Source: an uncultured Atribacterota bacterium
Lineage (GTDB): Bacteria > Atribacterota > Phoenicimicrobiia > Phoenicimicrobiales > Stramentimicrobiaceae
DNA: 55,499 nt
Direction: 5' to 3'
Assembly (NCBI GenBank): GCA_964485485.1
Contig: CAZAJW010000328.1
Location: 1-55,499, forward strand
Shown: piece by piece, positions 1-51,933 of the stretch
Position numbering within the stretch: position 1 is the first letter of the stretch
Layout of the letters: the number at the start of each line of letters is the position of its first letter
Notes under the pieces: model-generated
Told to the model about the DNA's origin: nothing
Seen by the model: the letters and a program-made list of their open reading frames with translations, nothing else
Database searches by the model: none
Program-made: the position numbers and the translations under genes

Positions 1-233
1 CGTAATTCTTTTTTGCCCATACTGTTGGTATAATGGGTATCGCCTTGTTTAATAGCATTAATTACTGCATCTTTGATTGGTTGGGGTGTTTCAAAATCAG
101 GTTCTCCAACCTCCAAGTGGATAATATTCCGTCCTTCTTTTTCTAATTGTTGAGCTTTTTCCATAACATCCATGGCAATAAAGGGAGAAATAGAAGAAGC
201 CTTTCGAGTTACCTGAAAATTATATCCTTTCAT
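1..233 (-). CDS. Class I/II PLP-dependent aminotransferase, N-terminal fragment (continues past window edge)
   Basis: Reverse-strand translation from ATG (complement of 231-233) gives MKGYNFQVTRKASSISPFIAMDVMEKAQQLEKEGRNIIHLEVGEPDFETPQPIKDAVINAIKQGDTHYTNSMGKKEL. The HLxxGEPDFxTP pattern is a typical aminotransferase N-terminus. It is absent from the ORF track because it is truncated. Confidence 0.7.
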   Translation of the reverse strand, partial: MKGYNFQVTRKASSISPFIAMDVMEKAQQLEKEGRNIIHLEVGEPDFETPQPIKDAVINAIKQGDTHYTNSMGKKEL

Positions 234-19150: not shown

Positions 19151-19851
19151 TAAAAAATGTCCTTTCCTCTAAAGACAGGTCCGTCTTTACAAACCCGTTT
19201 ATTACCCTTTTTTGTTTGACATGTGCAGACAAGACAGGCTCCAACCCCGCAAGCCATTCTTTTTTCCAAAGACACATAATGATCGATATTGAGTTTTCTT
19301 GCCTGTTTTTCGATTTTCTTCATCATTATCTCCGGTCCGCAACTGAAAATAGTGTTGTATTTTTCATATGGAATATAATCAGTGATAAAACCACCATAAT
19401 TCACCCGCAAGAGATCTGCATAATTATTAAAAGAGGCTTCAAATTCATTTTTTTCTGGTAATCCTAAAAAAACATGGATGGTATTATTTCTGCAGTATTT
19501 TTTTAATTGTTTTGAAACATAGAACAGGGGAGCAATTCCAGTTCCTCCACCTACCAGGGCAATGTCTCCCTTTACTTCCATCGGGAAATTATTGCCATAA
19601 GGACCATAAATACTAATTTCATCATCTTTTTTGCAATCAGCCAAAACAGTAGTTCCTTTGCCGATTTTCTTATATAAGAAAATAATTCCATCATTTTCTA
19701 AATCATAAACGCTCATCGGGCGATTTAAAAACATAAATTGACTGTCTTTTCTAATCATAAAGAATTGTCCCATTTTGGCTTCATATTTTCCAGAAATTTT
19801 TAACAGATAAAAATTATTTTTTAAGGGCTTATTGTATTTGATTAGAGCCAT
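19150..19851 (-). CDS. pyrK: Dihydroorotate dehydrogenase electron-transfer subunit
   Basis: FAD/NAD-binding fold with the C-terminal 2Fe-2S motif CGVGACLVCTC. Confidence 0.85.
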   Translation of the reverse strand: MALIKYNKPLKNNFYLLKISGKYEAKMGQFFMIRKDSQFMFLNRPMSVYDLENDGIIFLYKKIGKGTTVLADCKKDDEISIYGPYGNNFPMEVKGDIALVGGGTGIAPLFYVSKQLKKYCRNNTIHVFLGLPEKNEFEASFNNYADLLRVNYGGFITDYIPYEKYNTIFSCGPEIMMKKIEKQARKLNIDHYVSLEKRMACGVGACLVCTCQTKKGNKRVCKDGPVFRGKDIF

Positions 19852-20714
19852 TGAGCTATATCCTTTTTCATTTCCATTACTTTTTGCCGGGTAATTTTAA
19901 CGAAATCTTTTGTATCATCTATTCCTTGATGAGCAGCTATGATTCCTCGGGAAGAATTAATAACTGCATTAATGTCTTTATCAAAAATTTTTGCCAGGTC
20001 TTTACCGCTGCCACCCTGTTTCCCATAGCCGGGAATAAGGAAGAAAGTATGTTTCGCATGTTTTTTAATCATAAGAAATTCATCAGGATAGGTCAGGCCG
20101 ACTACCGAACCTATGGCATTGTACCCAAAATTTCCTCTATATTTTTTTCCCCATTCTTCAATTTTTTGGGTAATATGTATAAATAGTGGTTTACCATTTG
20201 CTTTCAGCTCTTGAAAATCTTTAGAGCCGGGATTAGATGTTTTTGCCAGTATAAAAAGTCCTTTTTCTCCGCTATCTAGGTATTTAAAATAAGGCCTTAC
20301 AGCATCTATGCCCATAAATGGATTAATAGTTAAAAAATCAGCTTCAAAATCTCCGGTAAAATGGGCTTTAGCATATTGTTCAGCGGTGGATGATATGTCT
20401 CCTCTTTTTATATCAGCGATGACAATGCCTTCTTTTTGTTTGATATAAGAGAGAGTTTTTTGATAAGCAATTAATCCTTTGATGCCGTGAGCTTCATAGA
20501 AGGCTATCTGAACTTTGTAACATGCGGTGATATCAAAAGTATTATCTATTATCGTCTTATTAAAAAGAAACATTTTATCAGTAATATTTAAACCATTATT
20601 ATTTTTTATGTAACCAGGGATAAAATCTAACTTTGTATCGAGTCCAATACATATAGGGCCTCTTTTATTGGCTAATTCATATAGTTTATCTATTATCATA
20701 TTTAATTTCTCCAT
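19842..20714 (-). CDS. pyrF: Orotidine 5'-phosphate decarboxylase (long type 2 form)
   Basis: DIKRGDI motif, 290 aa, sits in the pyr cluster. The start may be one of two nearby ATGs. Confidence 0.85.
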   Translation of the reverse strand: MEKLNMIIDKLYELANKRGPICIGLDTKLDFIPGYIKNNNGLNITDKMFLFNKTIIDNTFDITACYKVQIAFYEAHGIKGLIAYQKTLSYIKQKEGIVIADIKRGDISSTAEQYAKAHFTGDFEADFLTINPFMGIDAVRPYFKYLDSGEKGLFILAKTSNPGSKDFQELKANGKPLFIHITQKIEEWGKKYRGNFGYNAIGSVVGLTYPDEFLMIKKHAKHTFFLIPGYGKQGGSGKDLAKIFDKDINAVINSSRGIIAAHQGIDDTKDFVKITRQKVMEMKKDIAQWL

Positions 20715-21840
20715 TTTTAATAGTCATCAGCACTTCCCCGTAAACATCCTGACCTATAAAAGGTGTATTTTCTGATTTGGAATGCATTTTTTTTTCACCG
20801 ATTATATACTTTTTTGCCAGGTCTACCAGAACAAAATTCGAATTTGTTTTTTGATTAAATTTTGTTGCTCTTTTTTTTAACATATTCGATGGTGTTTCAG
20901 ACATTAATTTACTTAATAATTGAATATTTATATTAGCCCCCTTAAATAGGGTATAGACAATAGAAAAGGCGTGTTCCAATCCAATTAACCCTCGAGCTCC
21001 TTTTGACTTATCTTTTTTACTATGGGGAGCATGGTCAGTTGCAATAATATCTATTGTGCCATCAAGAACTCCCTTCAGCAATTCTTCAGTATCTTCCCTT
21101 TTTCGAAAGGGAGGATGTACTATGTAATCCAGTCCATAGCTAAATAAATGGTGTGGAGTTACCTCACAAGTAACATTCAAATTATCATTTTTAGCAGCCC
21201 GAACTAATTCAACGCTTTCTCCTTTGCTTACATGGCAGATATGTAAATTACCTCCATATTTTTTCAATAATTTCAAATCTCGCTCAATCATTTCTACTTC
21301 CGGTTCACAGTGTGTCAGTAATTTAAAATGATATTCTGAAGATGCCTGTAGAGCTCTTATCATTGTTTGTTTATTAATAATTGGTTCACCATCATTAGAG
21401 AAGAGCTGTGTATATCTAGTCATTGAATCAAAATCAACTAATTGGTTTGTATTCAGGTTCTTGGTAACAGCAGAGACAGGAATTACTTCACACATATTTA
21501 ATGACTTAGCTTTATCCAAAACATATTTAATGGTATCTGGATTGTCACAAATAGGCATTGTATTAGCCATAGGGCAAACAGTAGTAAATCCACCGGATAA
21601 TGCTGTCAGTTGTCCTGATTCCAAGTCTTCTTTATAAGTATATCCAGGGTCTCTAAAATGGCAATGCATATCTATAAAGGAGGGCATCAACACCAGTCCT
21701 TCTCCGTCAATAATCTCTGTAAAATTGTTTTTCCTGTCTAAATGCTTTATTTCACTAAAAGTATTATCAGAGATTAGAATATTTGTAGTTCTGTCTGTTT
21801 CCGTATCAATTATTCTAATTTTTTTAAATAGTATTGACAT
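20686..21840 (-). CDS. pyrC: Dihydroorotase
   Basis: DMHCHFRDPG (HxH metal motif) and ATDHAPH motif. Confidence 0.85.
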   Translation of the reverse strand: MSILFKKIRIIDTETDRTTNILISDNTFSEIKHLDRKNNFTEIIDGEGLVLMPSFIDMHCHFRDPGYTYKEDLESGQLTALSGGFTTVCPMANTMPICDNPDTIKYVLDKAKSLNMCEVIPVSAVTKNLNTNQLVDFDSMTRYTQLFSNDGEPIINKQTMIRALQASSEYHFKLLTHCEPEVEMIERDLKLLKKYGGNLHICHVSKGESVELVRAAKNDNLNVTCEVTPHHLFSYGLDYIVHPPFRKREDTEELLKGVLDGTIDIIATDHAPHSKKDKSKGARGLIGLEHAFSIVYTLFKGANINIQLLSKLMSETPSNMLKKRATKFNQKTNSNFVLVDLAKKYIIGEKKMHSKSENTPFIGQDVYGEVLMTIKNGEIKYDNR

Positions 21841-21850
21841 TGATATTTTC

Positions 21851-22273
21851 CTAGAGATTAGTTTTTTCGTGACAATATTCGCATTGATATTCTTTTGTAG
21901 ATGGATTAATCAGGGTAAATTCAATTTCTCCAACATCTTCAATGGTGCTAATGCATCTTGGGTTTTTACATTTTAATATCCCATATACTTTTCTGGGAAG
22001 CTCCAATTTTATTTTTTTCTTTTTTTGACCATTTTCAATAATATTAATAGTAACCCCTGAATCAATTAAGCCGAGTACAGTTAAATCAAGATAGATGTCA
22101 TTTTCGATTTTAATTAAGTCTTTCACTCCCATTTTATTTGAAGGAATATTTTTTAACAATACTACCGTATCTTCCAGTTTATCTAATCCCAATTGGCTAA
22201 ATATTTTGTAACCATTCCCGGATTTAATATGGTCGATTACAATACCCTTTTTTAATTTTGAAACATTTATCAT
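21851..22273 (-). CDS. pyrI: Aspartate carbamoyltransferase regulatory subunit
   Basis: 140 aa with a C-terminal zinc motif (CxNPxC ... CxYC). Immediately downstream of pyrB. Confidence 0.85.
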   Translation of the reverse strand: MINVSKLKKGIVIDHIKSGNGYKIFSQLGLDKLEDTVVLLKNIPSNKMGVKDLIKIENDIYLDLTVLGLIDSGVTINIIENGQKKKKIKLELPRKVYGILKCKNPRCISTIEDVGEIEFTLINPSTKEYQCEYCHEKTNL

Positions 22274-23193
22274 TAATTTTCTCCTTTCCCAACAATTTTG
22301 GAGATTAATGCCATCCTAACATACATTCCAAATTTTGCTTGCTTAAAATAAACTGCCCTATCATCCCGATCTACTTCTGTCGCTATTTCGTTTACTCTGG
22401 GCAAAGGATGCATGACAATCATATCATTTTTTGCCATTTTCATTATATTTATATCTAAAATATAAGAGTCTTTTAACCGGAGGTATTCTTCTTCACTAAA
22501 GAATCGCTCTTTTTGAATTCTAGTCATATATAGGATATCCAATGTATCAATGCAACTTTCTAAAGAAGAGGTTTCTTGATATCTATTATTTCCGATTTCT
22601 TCTTTTATGTATTCCGGAATTCGCAATTCTTCCGGAGATATAAATACAAAGTTAATATCCGGATACTTTAGAAGCATTTTTGTTAATGAATGAGTTGTGC
22701 GACCAAATTTTAAGTCTCCACACAATCCAATGGTAAAATCTGAGATAGGTCCCTTTAATTGGCGTATCGTCAATAAATCAGTTAAAGTTTGAGTGGGGTG
22801 TTGATGTCCACCGTCACCAGCGTTTATAATTGGAACGCTGGAATATTTCGAAGCTAGCTTGGGAGCTCCTTCTTTGGGGTGTCTCATAATAATTAAATCT
22901 GCATAGCAGGAGATAGTTTGAATAGTATCAATAAGGCTTTCTCCCTTTGATACAGAGGAAGTCATAGCATCAGCAAAACCTATCACTTGTCCTCCTAATC
23001 TAAGAATGGCAGATTCAAAACTAAATTTTGTTCTGGTAGAAGGTTCATAAAATAGTGTTGCTATTAAACATCCTTTACATAAACCAGAATAGTTCTTCTC
23101 GCTGTCAATTATTTTTCCGGCAAAAGATAATAGATCGTCAATCTCTTCCAATGAGAAATCATTTACTTCAATTAAACTTTTTCCTTCGATCAT
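22273..23193 (-). CDS. pyrB: Aspartate carbamoyltransferase catalytic subunit
   Basis: STRTR and HPTQ motifs, HPLPR motif, 306 aa. Confidence 0.92.
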
Positions 23194-23211
23194 ACGAATA
23201 ATACCTCCTTC

Positions 23212-23365
23212 TTAGTCTCGCTGGGACTAAATTAAAGATTATTTAACATAAAAAAACCTTTTCGTAAACAATACGAAAAGGTGGTATTCTGATGGTTCCG
23301 TTTATCATTCAATCTATTTGGTCGTTTTCTCATCTCTAACTACCTTTCTAGTATCTCGTACTAGA
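23212..23365 (-). promoter_or_regulatory. pyr operon leader: two PyrR-box-like hairpins flanking an intrinsic terminator
   Basis: On the minus strand the order is as follows. Hairpin TCTAGTA-CGAGA-TACTAGA (23365-23347). Terminator CCACCTTTTCGTATTGTTTACGAAAAGGTTTTTTT (23284-23250). Hairpin TTAGTC-CCAGCGA-GACTAA (23230-23212), directly before RBS GAAGGAGG. The last hairpin reads AGUCCCAGCGAGACU, which resembles the PyrR consensus ARUCCAGAGAGGYU. Confidence 0.45.
23250..23284 (-). terminator. Intrinsic terminator (attenuator) in pyr leader
   Basis: 10-bp stem CCTTTTCGTA/TACGAAAAGG with a 4-nt loop, followed by a run of 7 U on the minus strand. It lies upstream of the pyrB start. Confidence 0.6.
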
Positions 23366-23384
23366 TTAAAGATATCTTCTAAAA

Positions 23385-23414
23385 ATCATATATCACAGCA
23401 ATGCGAATTGTCAA
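23385..23414 (-). promoter_or_regulatory. Putative sigma-70 promoter of pyr operon
   Basis: The minus strand reads TTGACA-18 nt-TATGAT. Confidence 0.45.
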
Positions 23415-23498
23415 TGAAATTTTAAAGAAATGTTTCTGATATCTTCTTATCGTTGATTATTTATGGTCTTGAGAAGATTAATTAATATTGCTAAGTAG

Positions 23499-24362
23499 AT
23501 GAAAATAATTGTTTATTATATTATAATTGGTGAAGTGCTTGAAAAATATCATATATTAAAGAAACAAAAAAAACTATATGCTATATGGAGGGAAAAAATT
23601 AACATTCAATTTATTGAAACACATGCTCATCTGGATATGATTGAAAGAGAGCCGAGTGAAGTTATTGATGATGCTTTGAGAAAAGGCGTTATAAAAATTA
23701 TTTCTATTGGTATTGATTTGGAATCCAGTAGAAAGAATTCTTATTATGCGTCTCAATTTAAAAATGTGTACACTGCCATGGGTTTTCATCCCCATGAAAG
23801 CAAAAAGATGAATGATGAAGATTTTGTTCAATTAGAAAAATTGTTATCAACTCCCAAAAATATTGCCCTTGGAGAGATAGGGCTAGATTATTACTATCTG
23901 CATAGCAGCAAAGAAGAGCAGAAAAGGGCCTTTAGAGAGCAAATTGATTTAGCCAGAAGATACAATTTACCCATAATCGTTCATGATAGAGATGCACATG
24001 TAGATACTATGAAAATATTAGAAGAAAAAGCTAAAAATATGAAAGTGGTTTTGCATTGTTTTTCCGGTGACAAAAAAATGGCTGAATGGTGTGTGCAAAG
24101 AGGCTATTATTTTGGCATCGGAGGAGTAATAACTTTTAAAAATGCACGGAAATTAGCAGAAATAGTGAGAGAAATTCCTCTTGAGAATATATTATTGGAA
24201 ACAGATTCTCCTTTTCTTACTCCCATGCCATTTCGGGGAAAACCAAATGAACCCAAATATATACCGATAATTGCCGAAAAAATTGCGGAGCTGAAAGAAA
24301 AAGAGATATCTGAGATAGGCAATGTTACTACTGAGAATGCTAACCAATTTTTTGGGTTCTAG
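23499..24362 (+). CDS. tatD: TatD-family metal-dependent hydrolase/DNase
   Basis: ETHAHLD, GEIGLDY, HDRDA and ETDSPFL motifs. The first ~35 aa of the track ORF are probably not translated: TatD proteins normally begin just before the HxH motif, and a GGAGGG sits at 23586-23591. Confidence 0.8.
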   Translation: MKIIVYYIIIGEVLEKYHILKKQKKLYAIWREKINIQFIETHAHLDMIEREPSEVIDDALRKGVIKIISIGIDLESSRKNSYYASQFKNVYTAMGFHPHESKKMNDEDFVQLEKLLSTPKNIALGEIGLDYYYLHSSKEEQKRAFREQIDLARRYNLPIIVHDRDAHVDTMKILEEKAKNMKVVLHCFSGDKKMAEWCVQRGYYFGIGGVITFKNARKLAEIVREIPLENILLETDSPFLTPMPFRGKPNEPKYIPIIAEKIAELKEKEISEIGNVTTENANQFFGF

Positions 24363-24424
24363 TTCTTCAGCTTGTTGATTGTAGTATTTTGATTAACTAG
24401 ATTGTAAAAAATTTCTAACTTTGT

Positions 24425-24453
24425 TTGACATTTGAATGGTTAATAGGTAAAAT
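24425..24453 (+). promoter_or_regulatory. Sigma-70 promoter for leader peptide/ABC importer operon
   Basis: TTGACA (24425-24430), 17-nt spacer, TAAAAT (24448-24453). Confidence 0.6.
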
Positions 24454-24500
24454 ATTTTAAAATAATAAAAAATTAAGCATAATAAAAAAAGAGAATTAAA

Positions 24501-24554
24501 ATGATACAACAAGTTAATAATAATTATTATTACTACTATTATATTCCGGGGTAA
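24501..24554 (+). CDS. Tyr-rich attenuation leader peptide MIQQVNNNYYYYYYIPG
   Basis: The reading frame is ATG ATA CAA CAA GTT AAT AAT AAT TAT TAT TAC TAC TAT TAT ATT CCG GGG TAA. Six consecutive Tyr codons span 24525-24542. It sits between a consensus promoter and two terminators. The SD is weak (AGAGAA). Confidence 0.6.
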   Translation: MIQQVNNNYYYYYYIPG

Positions 24555-24602
24555 GTGCCTATCGGGTTTGGTAGTAGTAAGTAAAAGATTAGTTCTGATA
24601 CA

Positions 24603-24652
24603 AATCAACCACAGGCGTTTACCTCAGGTAAATTCCTGTGGTTGATTTTTTT
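24603..24652 (+). terminator. Leader terminator T1
   Basis: AATCAACCACAGG (24603-24615) pairs with CCTGTGGTTGATT (24635-24647), with an inner TTTACC/GGTAAA helix, followed by a U run. Confidence 0.7.
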
Positions 24653-24686
24653 AAACCACGGGTGTGTAAATCATTCGTGGTTTTTT
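24653..24686 (+). terminator. Leader terminator T2
   Basis: AAACCACG (24653-24660) pairs with CGTGGTTT (24676-24683), followed by a U run. Confidence 0.6.
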
Positions 24687-24773
24687 ATATAAGTAATAGA
24701 GAGGGGATGATAGGTGATTCAAAAAATATATTGGAATCCAATTAAAAATATTCAAAAAAAAGGAGGAAATAAA

Positions 24774-25799
24774 ATGAGAACAAATTCAAATCGTTCAGTC
24801 GTTCTTATGATTATTAGTGTGATGTTAATAATTATTGCTTTTATGGTAATGAGTGCACCTGTTTTAGCTGAACAGCTAAAAATTGGGATTAGTCAAATTG
24901 TAGAGCATCCGGCATTAGATAACTGTCGGGATGGTTTTGTAGATGGAATGGAAAAGGCAGGATACAGTACCGGTGAAGATGTTATATACGATTTTCAGAA
25001 TGCCCAGGGAGAATTTAGTAACGCTATTTCGATTGCTCAAAAATTTAAGGATGACCAGGTAGATATTATTGTGGCAATTTCTACTCCCATCGCTCAGGCT
25101 TCAGCACAGGTTACCAGTGAAATACCGATTATCATTGGGGCAATTACCGATCCGGTAGCAGCGAATATTGCTGAAAGCTGGGAAAGTTCCGGAAATAATA
25201 TAACTGGCATGTCTGATGCAGCTCCAAACGAAGCACAGTTAAAATTAATACCAAGGTTTTTTCCTCAGGCAACCAAAGTAGGAACAATTTATAATGCGGG
25301 TGAAGCCAATTCGGTGGTTCAGGTAGAACTTTCTCGAGAAATATGTCAGGATTTGGGATTAGAATTGGTTGAAGCCACAGTAAGTAATTCTAACGAGGTA
25401 TTAATGGCTGCTCAATCACTGGCTGGAAGAGTAGATGTATTTTATATAGTGACAGATAATGTTGCCGTATCAGCCATAAGCTCTATTGTTAAGGTTTCTT
25501 TGGAAGAAAAAATACCTATTATACTTGCAGACCCAACCAATGTTCCTGATGGAGGTTTTGCTTCCTTTGGAATAGATTATTTCACATTAGGTCAGAAAAG
25601 TGCTGAAAAAGCAGTTCAGGTACTTGAGGGGAAATTGCCTTCTGAAATACCTATTGGAAAATTAGAACAACCGGAAGAATTAAAATTTGTCATTAATATG
25701 GACATTGCACAACAGCTAAATCTGGAAATACCTGCCGACCTTTTAGGGGAAGCAGATTCTATTTTTCTTGGTGGTGTCAGCTGGGATCGAAGTGAATAA
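24774..25799 (+). CDS. ABC transporter substrate-binding protein, PF04392 (ABC_sub_bind) type; the family is annotated as a putative tryptophan/tyrosine transport system
   Basis: Signal/TM segment followed by LKIGISQIVEHPALD, typical of this family. I chose ATG 24774 after AAGGAGG; the track ORF starts at 24714. Confidence 0.82.
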   Translation: MRTNSNRSVVLMIISVMLIIIAFMVMSAPVLAEQLKIGISQIVEHPALDNCRDGFVDGMEKAGYSTGEDVIYDFQNAQGEFSNAISIAQKFKDDQVDIIVAISTPIAQASAQVTSEIPIIIGAITDPVAANIAESWESSGNNITGMSDAAPNEAQLKLIPRFFPQATKVGTIYNAGEANSVVQVELSREICQDLGLELVEATVSNSNEVLMAAQSLAGRVDVFYIVTDNVAVSAISSIVKVSLEEKIPIILADPTNVPDGGFASFGIDYFTLGQKSAEKAVQVLEGKLPSEIPIGKLEQPEELKFVINMDIAQQLNLEIPADLLGEADSIFLGGVSWDRSE

Positions 25800-25836: not shown

Positions 25837-26766
25837 ATGAGTTTGAGCTTAGTATTTCATGCAATAGAGCAGGGACTAGTTTTTGGACTTATGGCATTGG
25901 GGGTTTATATTACTTTTCAGGTATTGGATTTTCCGGATTTGTCAGTTGATGGAAGTTTCCCTTTAGGGGGTGCTATCACTGCTAAAATAATTTTTTCAGG
26001 AGGACATCCTTTAGTAGCAATTTTCTGGGCAATAGTAGGTGGTTTACTGGCAGGGGGATTAACAGCTTTTTTTCATACCAGGCTAAAATTTACTAATTTG
26101 CTTTCTGGTATACTGACCATGACCTTGCTTTACTCAGTCAACCTGAGGATTATGGGAAAATCAAATATTCCATTATTGGGGAAAATTACAATACTAGATA
26201 ATATAAAGAGTTTGTTTCCATCACTTACGATGGATCTGTTAACTCCTTTACTCTTTTTATTTATTGTTTTGCTTGTCAAAATATTGCTGGATTATTTTCT
26301 TTCAACTGAAATAGGTATGGCGATTCGAGCAACCGGAGATAACGAGCAGATGATTTTAAGTTTGGGTGTGGATACAAAGGTAACTAAAATTATTGGCTTA
26401 TGCCTTTCTAACGGATTAGTTGCTCTCTCGGGTTCTCTTTTTGCTCAATATTCTGGATTTGCTGATGTCGGAATGGGAATCGGGACAATTGTGGCCGGGT
26501 TGGCTTCAGTAATTATCGGACGCAGTATTATTAAGAATGGTAATATTGTCTGGATGACCACCAGTGTGATTATAGGTTCAATCATTTATCGTGCAACAGT
26601 TATGATTGCGCTGAGGTATGGTTATCACTTTGGTTTCCAACCGGGAGACTTGAAGCTTATTTCAGTTGTTCTGGTAGTCATTGCTTTAACTTTTCCGCTA
26701 GTTCGGGGAAGGGTCAAAGCGATTGTAATGTCTAATGATTCAAGTTCAACGGAAAAAGAACACTAA
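25837..26766 (+). CDS. ABC transporter permease (cognate to PF04392 SBP)
   Basis: Polytopic membrane protein of 309 aa, positioned between the SBP and ATPase genes. Confidence 0.82.
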   Translation: MSLSLVFHAIEQGLVFGLMALGVYITFQVLDFPDLSVDGSFPLGGAITAKIIFSGGHPLVAIFWAIVGGLLAGGLTAFFHTRLKFTNLLSGILTMTLLYSVNLRIMGKSNIPLLGKITILDNIKSLFPSLTMDLLTPLLFLFIVLLVKILLDYFLSTEIGMAIRATGDNEQMILSLGVDTKVTKIIGLCLSNGLVALSGSLFAQYSGFADVGMGIGTIVAGLASVIIGRSIIKNGNIVWMTTSVIIGSIIYRATVMIALRYGYHFGFQPGDLKLISVVLVVIALTFPLVRGRVKAIVMSNDSSSTEKEH

Positions 26767-26780
26767 GGAGGTAATTGACT

Positions 26781-27572
26781 ATGCTTCGTTTAAGATCTGT
26801 ATATAAATGTTTTGCAAGAGGAACTTCATATGAAGTCAATGCTTTAACGGGAATTAATTTAAAAATTACAGAAGGTGATTTCGTTACTGTTATTGGCAGT
26901 AATGGGGCTGGAAAGTCAACCCTCCTGAATATCATATCCGGAACGATGTTGCCAGATAGAGGAATGATAAAAATCGATAATCAGGATGTAACTAAAAAAG
27001 CTGAGCATTGCCGAGCCAAATACATTGGACGTGTTTTTCAGGATCCACTAATGGGAACTGCTCCTTCTATGACTATAGAAGAAAACCTGGTACTTTCTAT
27101 AAAACGTTATGGTAGAGGTTTAAGACTAGGATTGAATAACAAGAGAAGAGAATTCTTCCGAAATAAACTGGCAGAGTTAGAATTAGGGCTGGAGAATATG
27201 CTATCAAAGAAAGTAGCCTTGCTTTCCGGAGGGCAAAGACAGGCTTTAACGATTTTGATGGCAACAATGTTTGATCCAAAATTACTTTTATTGGATGAAC
27301 ATACCGCCTCCCTTGATCCGGGTATTAGTAAAAAAATACAGGCTATTACTCAGGAAATTGTTAAAGAAAAAAAATTAACAACAATCATGGTAACTCATAA
27401 TATGCAAGAAGCATTAAGACTAGGTAAACGAACTATTATGATGGACCGAGGTCGTATTATACTTGATATATCCGGCAAAGAAAGGGAAAATGTTACTATT
27501 GATTATTTATTAAAACAATTTGCAAAATTAAGAAAAGAAGAATATATTGAAGATGAATTAGTATTAGCCTGA
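26781..27572 (+). CDS. ABC transporter ATP-binding protein
   Basis: Walker A GSNGAGKST, signature LSGGQRQ, Walker B LLLLDE. ATG 26781 sits 9 nt after AAGGAGG; the track uses TTG 26775. Confidence 0.9.
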   Translation: MLRLRSVYKCFARGTSYEVNALTGINLKITEGDFVTVIGSNGAGKSTLLNIISGTMLPDRGMIKIDNQDVTKKAEHCRAKYIGRVFQDPLMGTAPSMTIEENLVLSIKRYGRGLRLGLNNKRREFFRNKLAELELGLENMLSKKVALLSGGQRQALTILMATMFDPKLLLLDEHTASLDPGISKKIQAITQEIVKEKKLTTIMVTHNMQEALRLGKRTIMMDRGRIILDISGKERENVTIDYLLKQFAKLRKEEYIEDELVLA

Positions 27573-27676: not shown

Positions 27677-27774
27677 TTTATGATAAAATAAAATAAAAGA
27701 AAAGAAAATAAAAAAGCATTTTAAGAAAATTAACCTATTAGTATTTGATGATCAATAGAGAGCGGAGGCAGACA

Positions 27775-28983
27775 ATGACCAGGAAACTATATCATGAAAA
27801 TTCCTATCAAAGAAAATTTCGAGCAACGGTTCTTGATAAAAAGATTGAACAAGAAACTTCTGCTTTGATCCTGGATCAGTCCTACTTTTACCCAAATGCA
27901 GGGGGACAGCTTTGTGACAAGGGGGCAATTGAAGGATTACCAGTTATTGATGTTCAGGAGTTAGACGGCGATATTATCCATTATATAAAAGGCAATATTT
28001 CGATAAACCAGGGTGATATTATAACCGGAGAAATTGATTGGGAGAGCCGCTTTGACCATATGCAACAACATAGCGGGCAACATGTCTTATCAGGCGTCTT
28101 AATGTCTATTTGGCAGAAAGAGACACTATCGTTTCATATGGGTGAAGAGATATGCACACTTGATATTTCTTATACTTCTCTTGATGAAAAAAAAGTCGAA
28201 CACCTGGAAGAGATGGTAAATCAGGTAATTTATGATAATAAAATAATTCGCCAATATTATCTGGAGGACAATAATAATATTACTGGGAAATTAAGAAAAA
28301 AACAGGAATTGCATGAAAAATTACGGGTAGTTGAGATTGATAAATTTGACTTAACTGCATGTGGTGGAACGCATTGTAAAAGTACAGGAGAGATTGCAAT
28401 TATTAAAATAATCGGCTGGGAAAAACATAAAGATAAAACCAGGATATCTTTTCTTTGTGGCCATCGCGCATTTGCTGACTACCGTAAGAAACACAAGATT
28501 ATTAAGCATCTTTCAGGCTTTTTTACAGTTGGGGTTAACCAATTGGAAGAAAAAGTAGACCAATTAAGTAAAGAAAAATACGAATTAACAAAAGGATTTA
28601 ATAGAATAGAGAAGGAATTAATTCGGTATGAAGCAGAAGAATTAAAGGTAAAGTATAGTAAAAATAAAAAAGACTATTTTCTAGTTAGCAAACTATTTTT
28701 TGAAAAGTCTGTTCATCTTCTTCGGCAAATATCATTGATGTTAATTAATGAGCAAAAATGTTTAGTTATAATAGGGGCTGAAAAGCCGGAACCTGTTATA
28801 TGTTTAGCCTGTTCTCAAGATTTTAATATTCATATGGGAGAATTAGTAAAACAAATAGTGATAGAATATAATGGAAATGGCGGAGGTTCTAATTTTATGG
28901 CAGTGGGTAAACTAAAAAGCAGCGCAGATCTCTCAAAAGTTTTTAATAAGACCACTAAACTGATTTTTCAGAAAATGCAGTAA
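27775..28983 (+). CDS. alaX: Alanyl-tRNA editing protein AlaX-L type
   Basis: HxxxH motif MQQHSGQHVL and zinc motif CGGTHC of the AlaRS editing domain, plus a C-terminal DHHA1-like region. Start at ATG 27775 after GCGGAGG. Confidence 0.78.
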   Translation: MTRKLYHENSYQRKFRATVLDKKIEQETSALILDQSYFYPNAGGQLCDKGAIEGLPVIDVQELDGDIIHYIKGNISINQGDIITGEIDWESRFDHMQQHSGQHVLSGVLMSIWQKETLSFHMGEEICTLDISYTSLDEKKVEHLEEMVNQVIYDNKIIRQYYLEDNNNITGKLRKKQELHEKLRVVEIDKFDLTACGGTHCKSTGEIAIIKIIGWEKHKDKTRISFLCGHRAFADYRKKHKIIKHLSGFFTVGVNQLEEKVDQLSKEKYELTKGFNRIEKELIRYEAEELKVKYSKNKKDYFLVSKLFFEKSVHLLRQISLMLINEQKCLVIIGAEKPEPVICLACSQDFNIHMGELVKQIVIEYNGNGGGSNFMAVGKLKSSADLSKVFNKTTKLIFQKMQ

Positions 28984-51581: not shown

Positions 51582-51606
51582 GATAAAAGTTTTTTAAAAT
51601 TAGTAA

Positions 51607-51933
51607 AATAGAGTACAGGAAATTTATTGAGTTGTAATGATAACAGAGAGTCAGTAATGGTGGAAGCTGATACATTATCTCAAAAAGCTCACCTGTTTAA
51701 TACCTGAATGAAAGAATTGTTTTATAAAGTAATTCAGGTCGTTTTTAAACGTTAAATAAACAAAGAGGGTAGATGGGGCTGTAGCTCAGTCGGGAGAGTG
51801 CCTCCTTGGCGTGGAGGAGGTCGCGGGTTCGATTCCCGCCAGCTCCACCATAAATATCTACTAAAAAAGGGTGGTACCACGGGAAATCTCGTCCCTTGTA
51901 ATGTATTTGTAAATTACAGGTGACGGGTTTTTT
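51607..51933 (+). promoter_or_regulatory. T-box riboswitch leader of leuS (specifier most likely CUC, Leu)
   Basis: Elements in order along the leader are as follows. AGAGTA at 51610-51615. AG bulge AGAGAG at 51645-51650. Distal loop GGTGGAA at 51659-51665. Specifier region AAAAGCTCA, with CTC at 51688-51690 followed by A. Stem II ACCTGAAT/ATTCAGGT at 51702-51739. F-box-like ACGTTA near 51750. T-box sequence AGGGTGGTACCACG at 51868-51881. Terminator at 51887-51927 followed by a run of six U. Confidence 0.85.
51775..51850 (+). tRNA. tRNA-Ala (anticodon GGC), CCA encoded, located inside the leuS T-box leader
   Basis: The cloverleaf is GGGGCTG-TA-GCTC-AGTCGGGA-GAGT-G-CCTCC-TTGGCGT-GGAGG-AGGTC-GCGGG-TTCGATT-CCCGC-CAGCTCC-A-CCA. 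It has the G3:U70 alanine identity pair. The anticodon GGC is at 51808-51810. Confidence 0.9.

Follow-up and report, generated by a model that had tools for sequence, protein, structure and literature searches.

Organization of the locus

The window analysed here is a 55,499-nt stretch of DNA from an uncultured Atribacterota bacterium (contig CAZAJW010000328.1), and the element under study is the leader that precedes an operon for an ATP-binding cassette (ABC) importer (Table 1). The operon encodes a substrate-binding protein, a permease and an ATP-binding subunit; these domain matches agree with the first-pass annotation of this DNA, made from the letters alone, which had placed a PF04392-type binding protein/permease/ATPase operon here. 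Against the NCBIfam TrpX model, the binding protein scored 277 bits, under the cut-off of 390 bits.

The leader ORF (open reading frame) has 17 codons and includes six consecutive tyrosine codons (TAT TAT TAC TAC TAT TAT), which bears out the tyrosine-rich mini-ORF first proposed at this position. The pattern (TAY)5 occurs only once in the 55.5-kb window, with a chance expectation of 0.03, and the window yielded no further mini-ORF of this type; other matches appear inside listed ORFs or are without promoter and terminator context. The region 5′ of the leader ORF is A/U-rich, and its Shine-Dalgarno sequence forms a duplex of −2.9 kcal/mol with a generic anti-Shine-Dalgarno sequence, compared with −11.8 kcal/mol for the strong Shine-Dalgarno sequence of the binding-protein gene, so the caveat of a weak leader ribosome-binding site that accompanied the original proposal stands.

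The sigma-70-type promoter 5′ of the mini-ORF, also noted earlier, agrees with the consensus at 11 of 12 positions and scores highest among the promoter sites within 23400–25400. The end of its −10 element lies 47 nt from the leader ATG (48 nt had been given), and transcription would start approximately 40 nt 5′ of the leader ORF. Of 51 distinct orthologous leaders, 48 have a promoter of the form TTGAYN-16..18-TANNNT, whose end lies a median of 45 nt before the leader ATG. The upstream TatD-type gene stops at 24362, the two terminators lie 240–320 nt further on, and the conserved promoter sits between that gene and the terminators. A 71-codon minus-strand ORF overlapping the leader (24393–24608) is not conserved, with an open span of 20–66 codons across orthologues. 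No candidate regulator gene linked to the importer operon was found among the surrounding genes.

Table 1 Features of the leader, the importer operon and two homologous loci (window coordinates unless a locus is named).
Feature	Position	Strand	Details	Basis
Sigma-70-type promoter	24425–24453	+	TTGACA 24425–24430, 17-nt spacer, TAAAAT 24448–24453	11/12 consensus positions
Leader ORF	24501–24554	+	17 codons, MIQQVNNNYYYYYYIPG; ATG at 24501, TAA at 24552–24554	
Six putative regulatory tyrosine codons	24525–24542	+	TAT TAT TAC TAC TAT TAT	read from sequence
Segment A	24530–24541	+	5′ arm of A:B hairpin, inside the tyrosine codons	fold
Segment X	24546–24560	+	CCGGGGUAAGUGCCU; 5′ strand of the T1 antiterminator, overlaps the leader stop codon	truncated folds, alignment
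Segment B	24569–24580	+	UGGUAGUAGUAA; 3′ arm of A:B enclosing X, proposed anti-antiterminator	fold and alignment
Terminator 1 (T1)	24602–24652	+	5′ arm C 24602–24623, 3′ arm D 24627–24648, U-tract 24646–24652	fold, alignment
D:E pairing	24635–24662	+	T2 antiterminator: CCUGUGGUU (24635–24643) with AACCACGGG (24654–24662)	fold, alignment
Terminator 2 (T2)	24653–24686	+	5′ arm E 24653–24664, 3′ arm F 24672–24683, U-tract 24681–24686	terminator scan
Substrate-binding protein gene	24774–25799	+	PF04392, ABC importer	PF04392, 283 bits
Permease	25837–26766	+	PF02653	domain match
ATP-binding subunit	26775–27572	+	PF00005	domain match
T-box, Clostridiales homologue L051	L051 2641–2896		upstream of binding-protein homologue	T-box scan
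T-box, Clostridiales homologue L052	L052 2563–2815		upstream of binding-protein homologue	T-box scan

Conservation of the tyrosine-codon leader in Atribacterota

The relatives of the binding protein are Atribacterota proteins, with the best match in Candidatus Oleincola secundus (94% identity). A scan of species-representative genomes provided 31 Atribacterota loci (58–94% protein identity) and 49 loci of other phyla. All Atribacterota loci with sufficient upstream DNA revealed an ATG-started ORF of 16–39 codons containing 5–13 in-frame tyrosines. Upstream of the 49 homologues from other phyla such leaders were absent, and only scattered YYY or FFFF occurrences were seen.

A metagenome scan that relied on the DNA pattern of the leader only, with the importer gene not used, returned 120 stretches. 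Those with a tyrosine run of at least four and sufficient downstream DNA all carried a binding-protein orthologue, except for one GC-rich chance match (L129), whereas stretches without such a run never did. These results indicate that the leader element is tied to the importer operon.

The pooled set comprises 55 distinct leaders, with importer proteins 58–95% identical. An in-frame ATG ORF extends through the tyrosine run without an intervening stop in 54 of the 55 (4–13 tyrosines), and the exception, L134, is probably a chance match to the pattern. Tyrosine mini-ORFs, which the original proposal had suggested looking for, are therefore found in the orthologous leaders. The 54 ORFs encode 51 different peptides of 16–39 codons, whose N-terminal parts show no relationship from one lineage to another and vary in length, while the frame is always kept. 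The other frames are open through the run in no leader (frame +2) and in only 11 of the 55 (frame +1). Since stops would soon close an unselected frame in an AT-rich genome, the kept frame argues for selection at the level of the ORF, and, as judged from these comparisons, the tyrosine run is the sole conserved coding feature of the leader ORF. The leader stop codon lies within segment X in 39 leaders, after X in 16 and before X in none; an unstalled ribosome would thus always pass over X.

Two minor observations accompany this set. In leader subgroup 2 (L018–L031 and most of the metagenome leaders; the three subgroups are described below), a conserved GGTTGGTTGAATAAAA is located 5–20 nt 5′ of the leader ATG, replacing the Shine-Dalgarno sequence. 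One Atribacterota genome (metagenome-assembled genome DAOSRJ01; L016 and L017) holds two copies of the binding-protein gene, both approximately 71% identical to that of the window, with L017 ending at a contig edge.

Two mutually exclusive predicted folds of the leader RNA

Folding of 24455–24700 gave −69.3 kcal/mol, compared with −39.7 ± 3.9 kcal/mol for shuffled sequences (z = −7.7). Covariation was counted on a MAFFT alignment of 49 sequences, built without reference to any structure; the aligned sequences are related, so the shuffle counts given below are not probabilities, and the slid controls and the three subgroup solutions form the stronger argument.

In the terminated state, the RNA forms the A:B hairpin, the X hairpin, T1 and T2, with 92.2% of alignment cells paired and 13 compensatory pairs (slid controls, 37–55%). 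The first-pass annotation had identified TTACTACTA (24530–24538), within the tyrosine run, as complementary to TAGTAGTAA (24572–24580); this holds, and the pairing extends to 12 pairs (24530–24541 with 24569–24580). The A:B helix is paired in 85% of cells, with one compensatory pair, and the A:B hairpin including the X hairpin amounts to −19.7 kcal/mol. In 16 sequences, a TAT/TAC change in A is offset by an A/G change in B (alignment columns 15:60), and such a synonymous change matched in B would fit a joint coding and structural constraint on the tyrosine stretch. Within the loop of A:B, segment X folds into a small hairpin in the untranslated RNA, paired in 100% of cells. The two intrinsic terminators reported after the mini-ORF were both recovered, each with a GC-rich stem and a U-tract, and both are conserved with compensatory changes: T1 (−29.1 kcal/mol) has 96.6% of cells paired, 5 compensatory pairs and a U-rich tail in all 49 aligned orthologues, and T2 (−15.1 kcal/mol) has 5 + 2 compensatory pairs.

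In the alternative state, X pairs with C and D pairs with E, and neither terminator is present. No convincing antiterminator for T1 had been recognized previously; a long-range one exists, between X and 24613–24628 of T1 (AGGCGUUUACCUCAGG; 5′ arm and inner part), and it is joined by D:E, which relays between the two terminators. The X:C helix is paired in 98.4% of cells over the 49 sequences, with compensatory changes, and D:E (−13.2 kcal/mol) in 98.0%, with 3 compensatory pairs. For X:C (13 bp) and D:E (9 bp) combined, pairing holds in 98.2% of cells and 5 pairs show compensatory changes; slid controls stay at 32–51%, and 0 of 500 shuffles attain the observed score. Furthermore, the leaders fall into three subgroups with differing yet complementary X and C sequences (CCGGGGUAAGUGCCU with AGGCGUUUACCUCAGG, GAGGGGGUAUAUGCCUA with UAGGCAUGUGCCUCCC, and CAGGAGGUAAUUGCC with GGCAGUUACCUCCUG), and D:E lengthens to 13–15 pairs in the two subgroups to which the window does not belong. 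The X:C duplex amounts to −19 to −32 kcal/mol in all 49 sequences (z ≤ −3.4 relative to shuffled X). The two states, A:B with C:D and E:F or X:C with D:E, are mutually exclusive.

The computed fold depends on the position of the ribosome. With a ribosome-sized mask over the tyrosine codons, window transcripts ending at 24624–24634 fold as X:C, whereas the same truncated transcripts without the mask keep A:B and then form T1; under the mask, all 49 orthologues gave X:C. Little energy separates the competing helices (X:C region, −25.2 kcal/mol, vs T1, −29.1 kcal/mol; D:E, −13.2 kcal/mol, vs T2, −15.1 kcal/mol), and these modelled energies would suit a kinetic competition.

A his-like step in which B pairs with the 5′ arm of T1 was also considered and rejected, as no convincing B:C pairing was found and the partner of C is X. 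In subgroup 2, a downstream copy of the tyrosine-codon segment, AUUGCUAUUAU, is able to pair with B when A is occupied. In most orthologues, X holds a Shine-Dalgarno-like GGAGG or GGGGG and C an anti-Shine-Dalgarno-like CCUCC; these motifs may simply supply the G and C needed for stable helices where the genome is AT-rich, or they could enable X to contact the 16S rRNA tail of a ribosome translating the leader.

Proposed attenuation mechanism

Based on the conserved reading frame, the covarying exclusive helices and their dependence on ribosome position, we propose, at a probability of roughly 80%, that the leader acts as a transcription attenuator of the ribosome-mediated, leader-peptide type, which responds to charged tRNA-Tyr and controls an ABC importer of aromatic amino acids, probably tyrosine, in Atribacterota. 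The first-pass annotation had reached the same view of a tyrosine-codon attenuator, and it has gained from the in-frame run in 54 of 55 leaders, the covarying helices and the restriction of the element to a position before the importer operon.

The interacting segments would be the tyrosine codons (A), the segment at the leader stop (X), the partner of A (B), the arms of T1 (C and D) and the arms of T2 (E and F). When tyrosine is plentiful, a ribosome that translates the leader would pass the tyrosine codons and X to reach the stop codon, and would cover X while C and D emerge; with X covered, C:D (T1) would form and transcription would stop, with E:F (T2) as a back-up. When tyrosine is short, the ribosome would stall on the early tyrosine codons with its front edge short of X, leaving A:B opened and X bare. 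The bare X would capture C as it emerges, D, left partnerless, would pair with E, and with neither terminator formed the importer genes would be transcribed. With no ribosome on the leader, the first-formed A:B would hold X in its loop, and termination would be favoured in the version of the leader found in the window. Termination in this untranslated state would depend on A:B forming first; X:C beside an intact A:B would presumably be a strained pseudoknot. The relay through two terminators may yield a much sharper, near all-or-none response than that of single-terminator attenuators.

Several results weigh against this proposal. The leader Shine-Dalgarno sequence is weak in essentially all orthologues (median −3.1 kcal/mol, vs −11.8 kcal/mol for the importer gene), and initiation at the leader would have to depend on its 5′ region being A/U-rich and unstructured. 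Full-length folds favour the terminators (−68.7 kcal/mol, vs −45.2 kcal/mol for the read-through state, when the states are forced), and they form both terminators every time even with the ribosome mask, X:C being seen once truncated co-transcriptional folds are used. Since the terminators win at full length, read-through has to be kinetic; in the Escherichia coli trp leader, the terminator is likewise the more stable helix and read-through is kinetic. For 42 of the 49 orthologues, moreover, the truncated transcript has X:C as its minimum-energy fold even without a ribosome, so that A:B may not serve as an anti-antiterminator in all leaders, nor the untranslated state always favour termination. 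In leaders with 10–13 tyrosines, a ribosome stalled at the first of these codons would not reach segment A.

The last of these points concerns the substrate. The closest solved relative of the binding protein is CD0873 of Clostridioides difficile (6HNI, E = 1.7e-68), which binds tyrosine by crystallography and thermal shift, with Glu263 contacting the tyrosine hydroxyl and Tyr279 excluding tryptophan (PMC6816091). Asp253 and Tyr269 of the window protein align with these two residues and are both invariant in the Atribacterota orthologues, and a phenylalanine-binding Vibrio protein has Ala at the position equivalent to Glu263. Two Clostridiales homologues (L051 and L052, 41–44% identical), however, have a T-box directly upstream with a specifier read as UUC (Phe), and both carry Glu at the tyrosine-hydroxyl position, which in the window protein is occupied by Asp, likewise acidic. 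As a marker of tyrosine specificity, the acidic residue was therefore rejected after this cross-check, as it fails to distinguish Tyr from Phe; there must be a gap in the residue rule or in the reading of the specifier. The tyrosine substrate suggested by the first-pass annotation draws independent support from CD0873, and the residue signature by itself is not decisive. On sequence grounds, the family is one of aromatic amino-acid importers, and tyrosine is probably the substrate, as indicated mainly by the leader itself.

Alternative explanations

If the leader were a structured RNA switch under the control of a trans-acting factor, either an RNA-binding protein or uncharged tRNA recognizing the UAY repeats or the X hairpin, the mini-ORF would be incidental. 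The weak leader Shine-Dalgarno sequence agrees with such a switch, the small X hairpin, paired in every cell of the alignment, could be its binding site, and the tyrosine run is also an arm of a conserved helix, so that selection on the RNA could alone keep the UAY repeat. RNA-level selection nevertheless leaves unexplained why the ATG is always in the tyrosine frame, with no stops over 7–23 variable upstream codons in an AT-rich genome, and why the stop codon always falls in or after X. There is no T-box sequence or stem I in the leader, the UAG/UAY triplets are contiguous, unlike TRAP sites, in which the triplets are spaced, and the operon is not accompanied by a candidate regulator gene. 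Considering these points, we regard a trans-acting switch as unlikely.

Alternatively, the leader could be a leader-peptide attenuator that reads something other than tyrosine supply, namely the decoding of NAY codons by queuosine-modified tRNAs, or general translation capacity. Queuosine-modified tRNAs read the NAY codons, which specify Tyr, Asn, His and Asp, and Asn, His or Asp codons often border the tyrosine run or break it up (e.g., INNYYYY, YYHYYYYYY and YYYYYYDPEV). Asn codons are, however, common in an AT-rich genome, the flanks are not conserved (HSQ before the run in L003, HKR in L004), and tyrosine is the sole conserved enrichment. The binding protein is moreover of the aromatic amino-acid type, with tyrosine bound by its closest solved relative (PMC6816091). 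An attenuator that follows something other than tyrosine supply appears quite unlikely on this evidence, and we hold it to be decidedly unlikely that the run serves as a gauge of NAY decoding, with the importer induced by tRNA modification or the state of tRNA-Tyr and not by tyrosine supply alone.

That nothing here is regulatory, with the terminators merely ending the TatD-type gene 240–320 nt after its stop and the tyrosine run being low-complexity sequence of an AT-rich genome, is hardly credible and is effectively refuted by the comparative sequence data, given the conserved promoter between that gene and the terminators, the 0.03 occurrences of (TAY)5 expected in the window, and a whole leader conserved with covariation in approximately 55 distinct sequences, always before the importer.

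Comparison with known regulatory systems

The proposed attenuator resembles trpL, hisL, pheL, leuL, thrL and ilvL, in which a short ORF rich in codons for the regulated amino acid is combined with exclusive antiterminator and terminator helices, and in which the position of the ribosome selects the helix, as our folding model would have it here. The his leader operates as a multi-step relay, and the alternation of A:B, C:D and E:F with X:C and D:E resembles it. Unlike the enterobacterial attenuators, this leader would sense tyrosine, occurs in Atribacterota and precedes an importer rather than a biosynthetic operon; it has two complete terminators in series, each with its own antiterminator; and its X segment lies in the loop of the regulatory-codon hairpin and overlaps the stop codon, with a weak Shine-Dalgarno sequence upstream of the ORF. 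Translation of a leader ORF also controls elongation into a transporter gene in the enterobacterial mgtL/mgtA and tnaC/tnaAB systems, where mgtL responds through proline codons and Mg2+ and tnaC through free tryptophan acting on the nascent peptide, in part with Rho dependence. Unlike the leader described here, neither has a run of cognate codons for the transported substrate.

Scans of the leader with Rfam, at gathering thresholds and at E ≤ 10, assigned it to no family, and it is without sequence similarity to the Rfam leader families. The trpB motif (RF04312; 23.6 bits, cut-off 59, E = 0.6) and His_leader (RF00514; 21 bits, cut-off 49, E = 0.42) scored below their cut-offs, with matches mostly on generic terminator hairpins, and both identities were rejected. 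No match to the T-box model (RF00230) was found at 24300–24850 even at E ≤ 10, whereas the same model finds a T-box at 51602–51899 of the window. The statement that this importer family is usually T-box regulated proved overstated for our sample, as a T-box lies directly upstream in 2 of 40 distant homologue loci scanned.

A T-box does control TrpX of Streptococcus suis, a PF04392-type importer, in response to tryptophan (PMC9382623). The trpX T-box and the leader described here thus share the transporter family and, as proposed, transcription attenuation by aromatic tRNA charging (PMC9382623), but the T-box RNA binds uncharged tRNA directly, whereas the proposed sensor here is the translating ribosome, with no T-box. 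Another aromatic attenuator mediated by the ribosome is the aroR leader upstream of aroF in Corynebacterium glutamicum, which contains a Tyr codon (Phe-Tyr-Phe), responds to phenylalanine and is unaffected by tyrosine availability (Neshat et al. 2014, in review PMC11802643); it has one Tyr codon, compared with 4–13 here, and controls biosynthesis rather than uptake. Among aromatic leaders, it was the one example with a Tyr codon that we met in the literature. The uORFC-13-1 motif upstream of aroF in Acholeplasma, a comparative prediction for which attenuation was proposed (PMC8632094), likewise places an upstream ORF with codons for an aromatic amino acid beside a terminator. Its codons are Phe (U-run) codons, the gene is biosynthetic, the phylum is different, and there is no apparent similarity in sequence or architecture.

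A survey in 2005 described tyrosine genes as T-box regulated and not attenuator regulated (PMC1262725). We found neither a tyrosine leader-peptide attenuator nor any Atribacterota attenuator in the literature, which is weak evidence as the coverage omits most subscription journals. If the proposal is correct, tyrosine would join the classic list of attenuators (Trp, His, Phe, Leu, Thr and Ile/Val), which has no Tyr member. The leader would represent a known principle in a new form, tyrosine-specific, with an importer as target and a two-terminator relay, and the architecture of one sensor serving two full terminators through a relay is unusual. It would furthermore extend the mechanism to Atribacterota, which are largely uncultured and whose gene regulation is essentially unknown. 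The proposal makes a specific prediction, induction of tyrosine uptake by tyrosine limitation, for a family annotated only as 'putative tryptophan/tyrosine transport', and hints that tyrosine scavenging is important for Atribacterota living in sediments, oil reservoirs and digesters. The alignment of 49 sequences could serve as the seed of a new RNA family.

Other features of the window

Right after the importer operon (27745–28983), the window encodes a stand-alone AlaX-type alanyl-tRNA editing protein with a DHHA1 domain, with no evident link to the leader. Upstream and divergent, on the minus strand (19842–23193), lies a pyrimidine biosynthesis cluster, judged from translations only; by appearance, its members are the catalytic and regulatory chains of aspartate carbamoyltransferase, dihydroorotase and an orotidine monophosphate (OMP) decarboxylase-like protein. 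This cluster is preceded by a 300-nt leader (23194–23498).

The T-box leader at 51602–51899 (101.9 bits) lies upstream of leuS, with a specifier read as CUC (Leu). A complete non-cognate tRNA-Ala(GGC) gene (51775–51850) is contained inside its stem III loop (GGUAGAU ... AUCUACU), just 5′ of the antiterminator sequence AGGGUGGUACCACGGG; the tRNA has G3:U70 and an encoded CCA. No precedent for a tRNA gene nested in a leuS T-box leader was found in a literature search. Four other Atribacterota lineages (L201–L204, at approximately 1150–1500), whose leucyl-tRNA synthetases (LeuRS) are 68–84% identical, share this nested arrangement 5′ of leuS.

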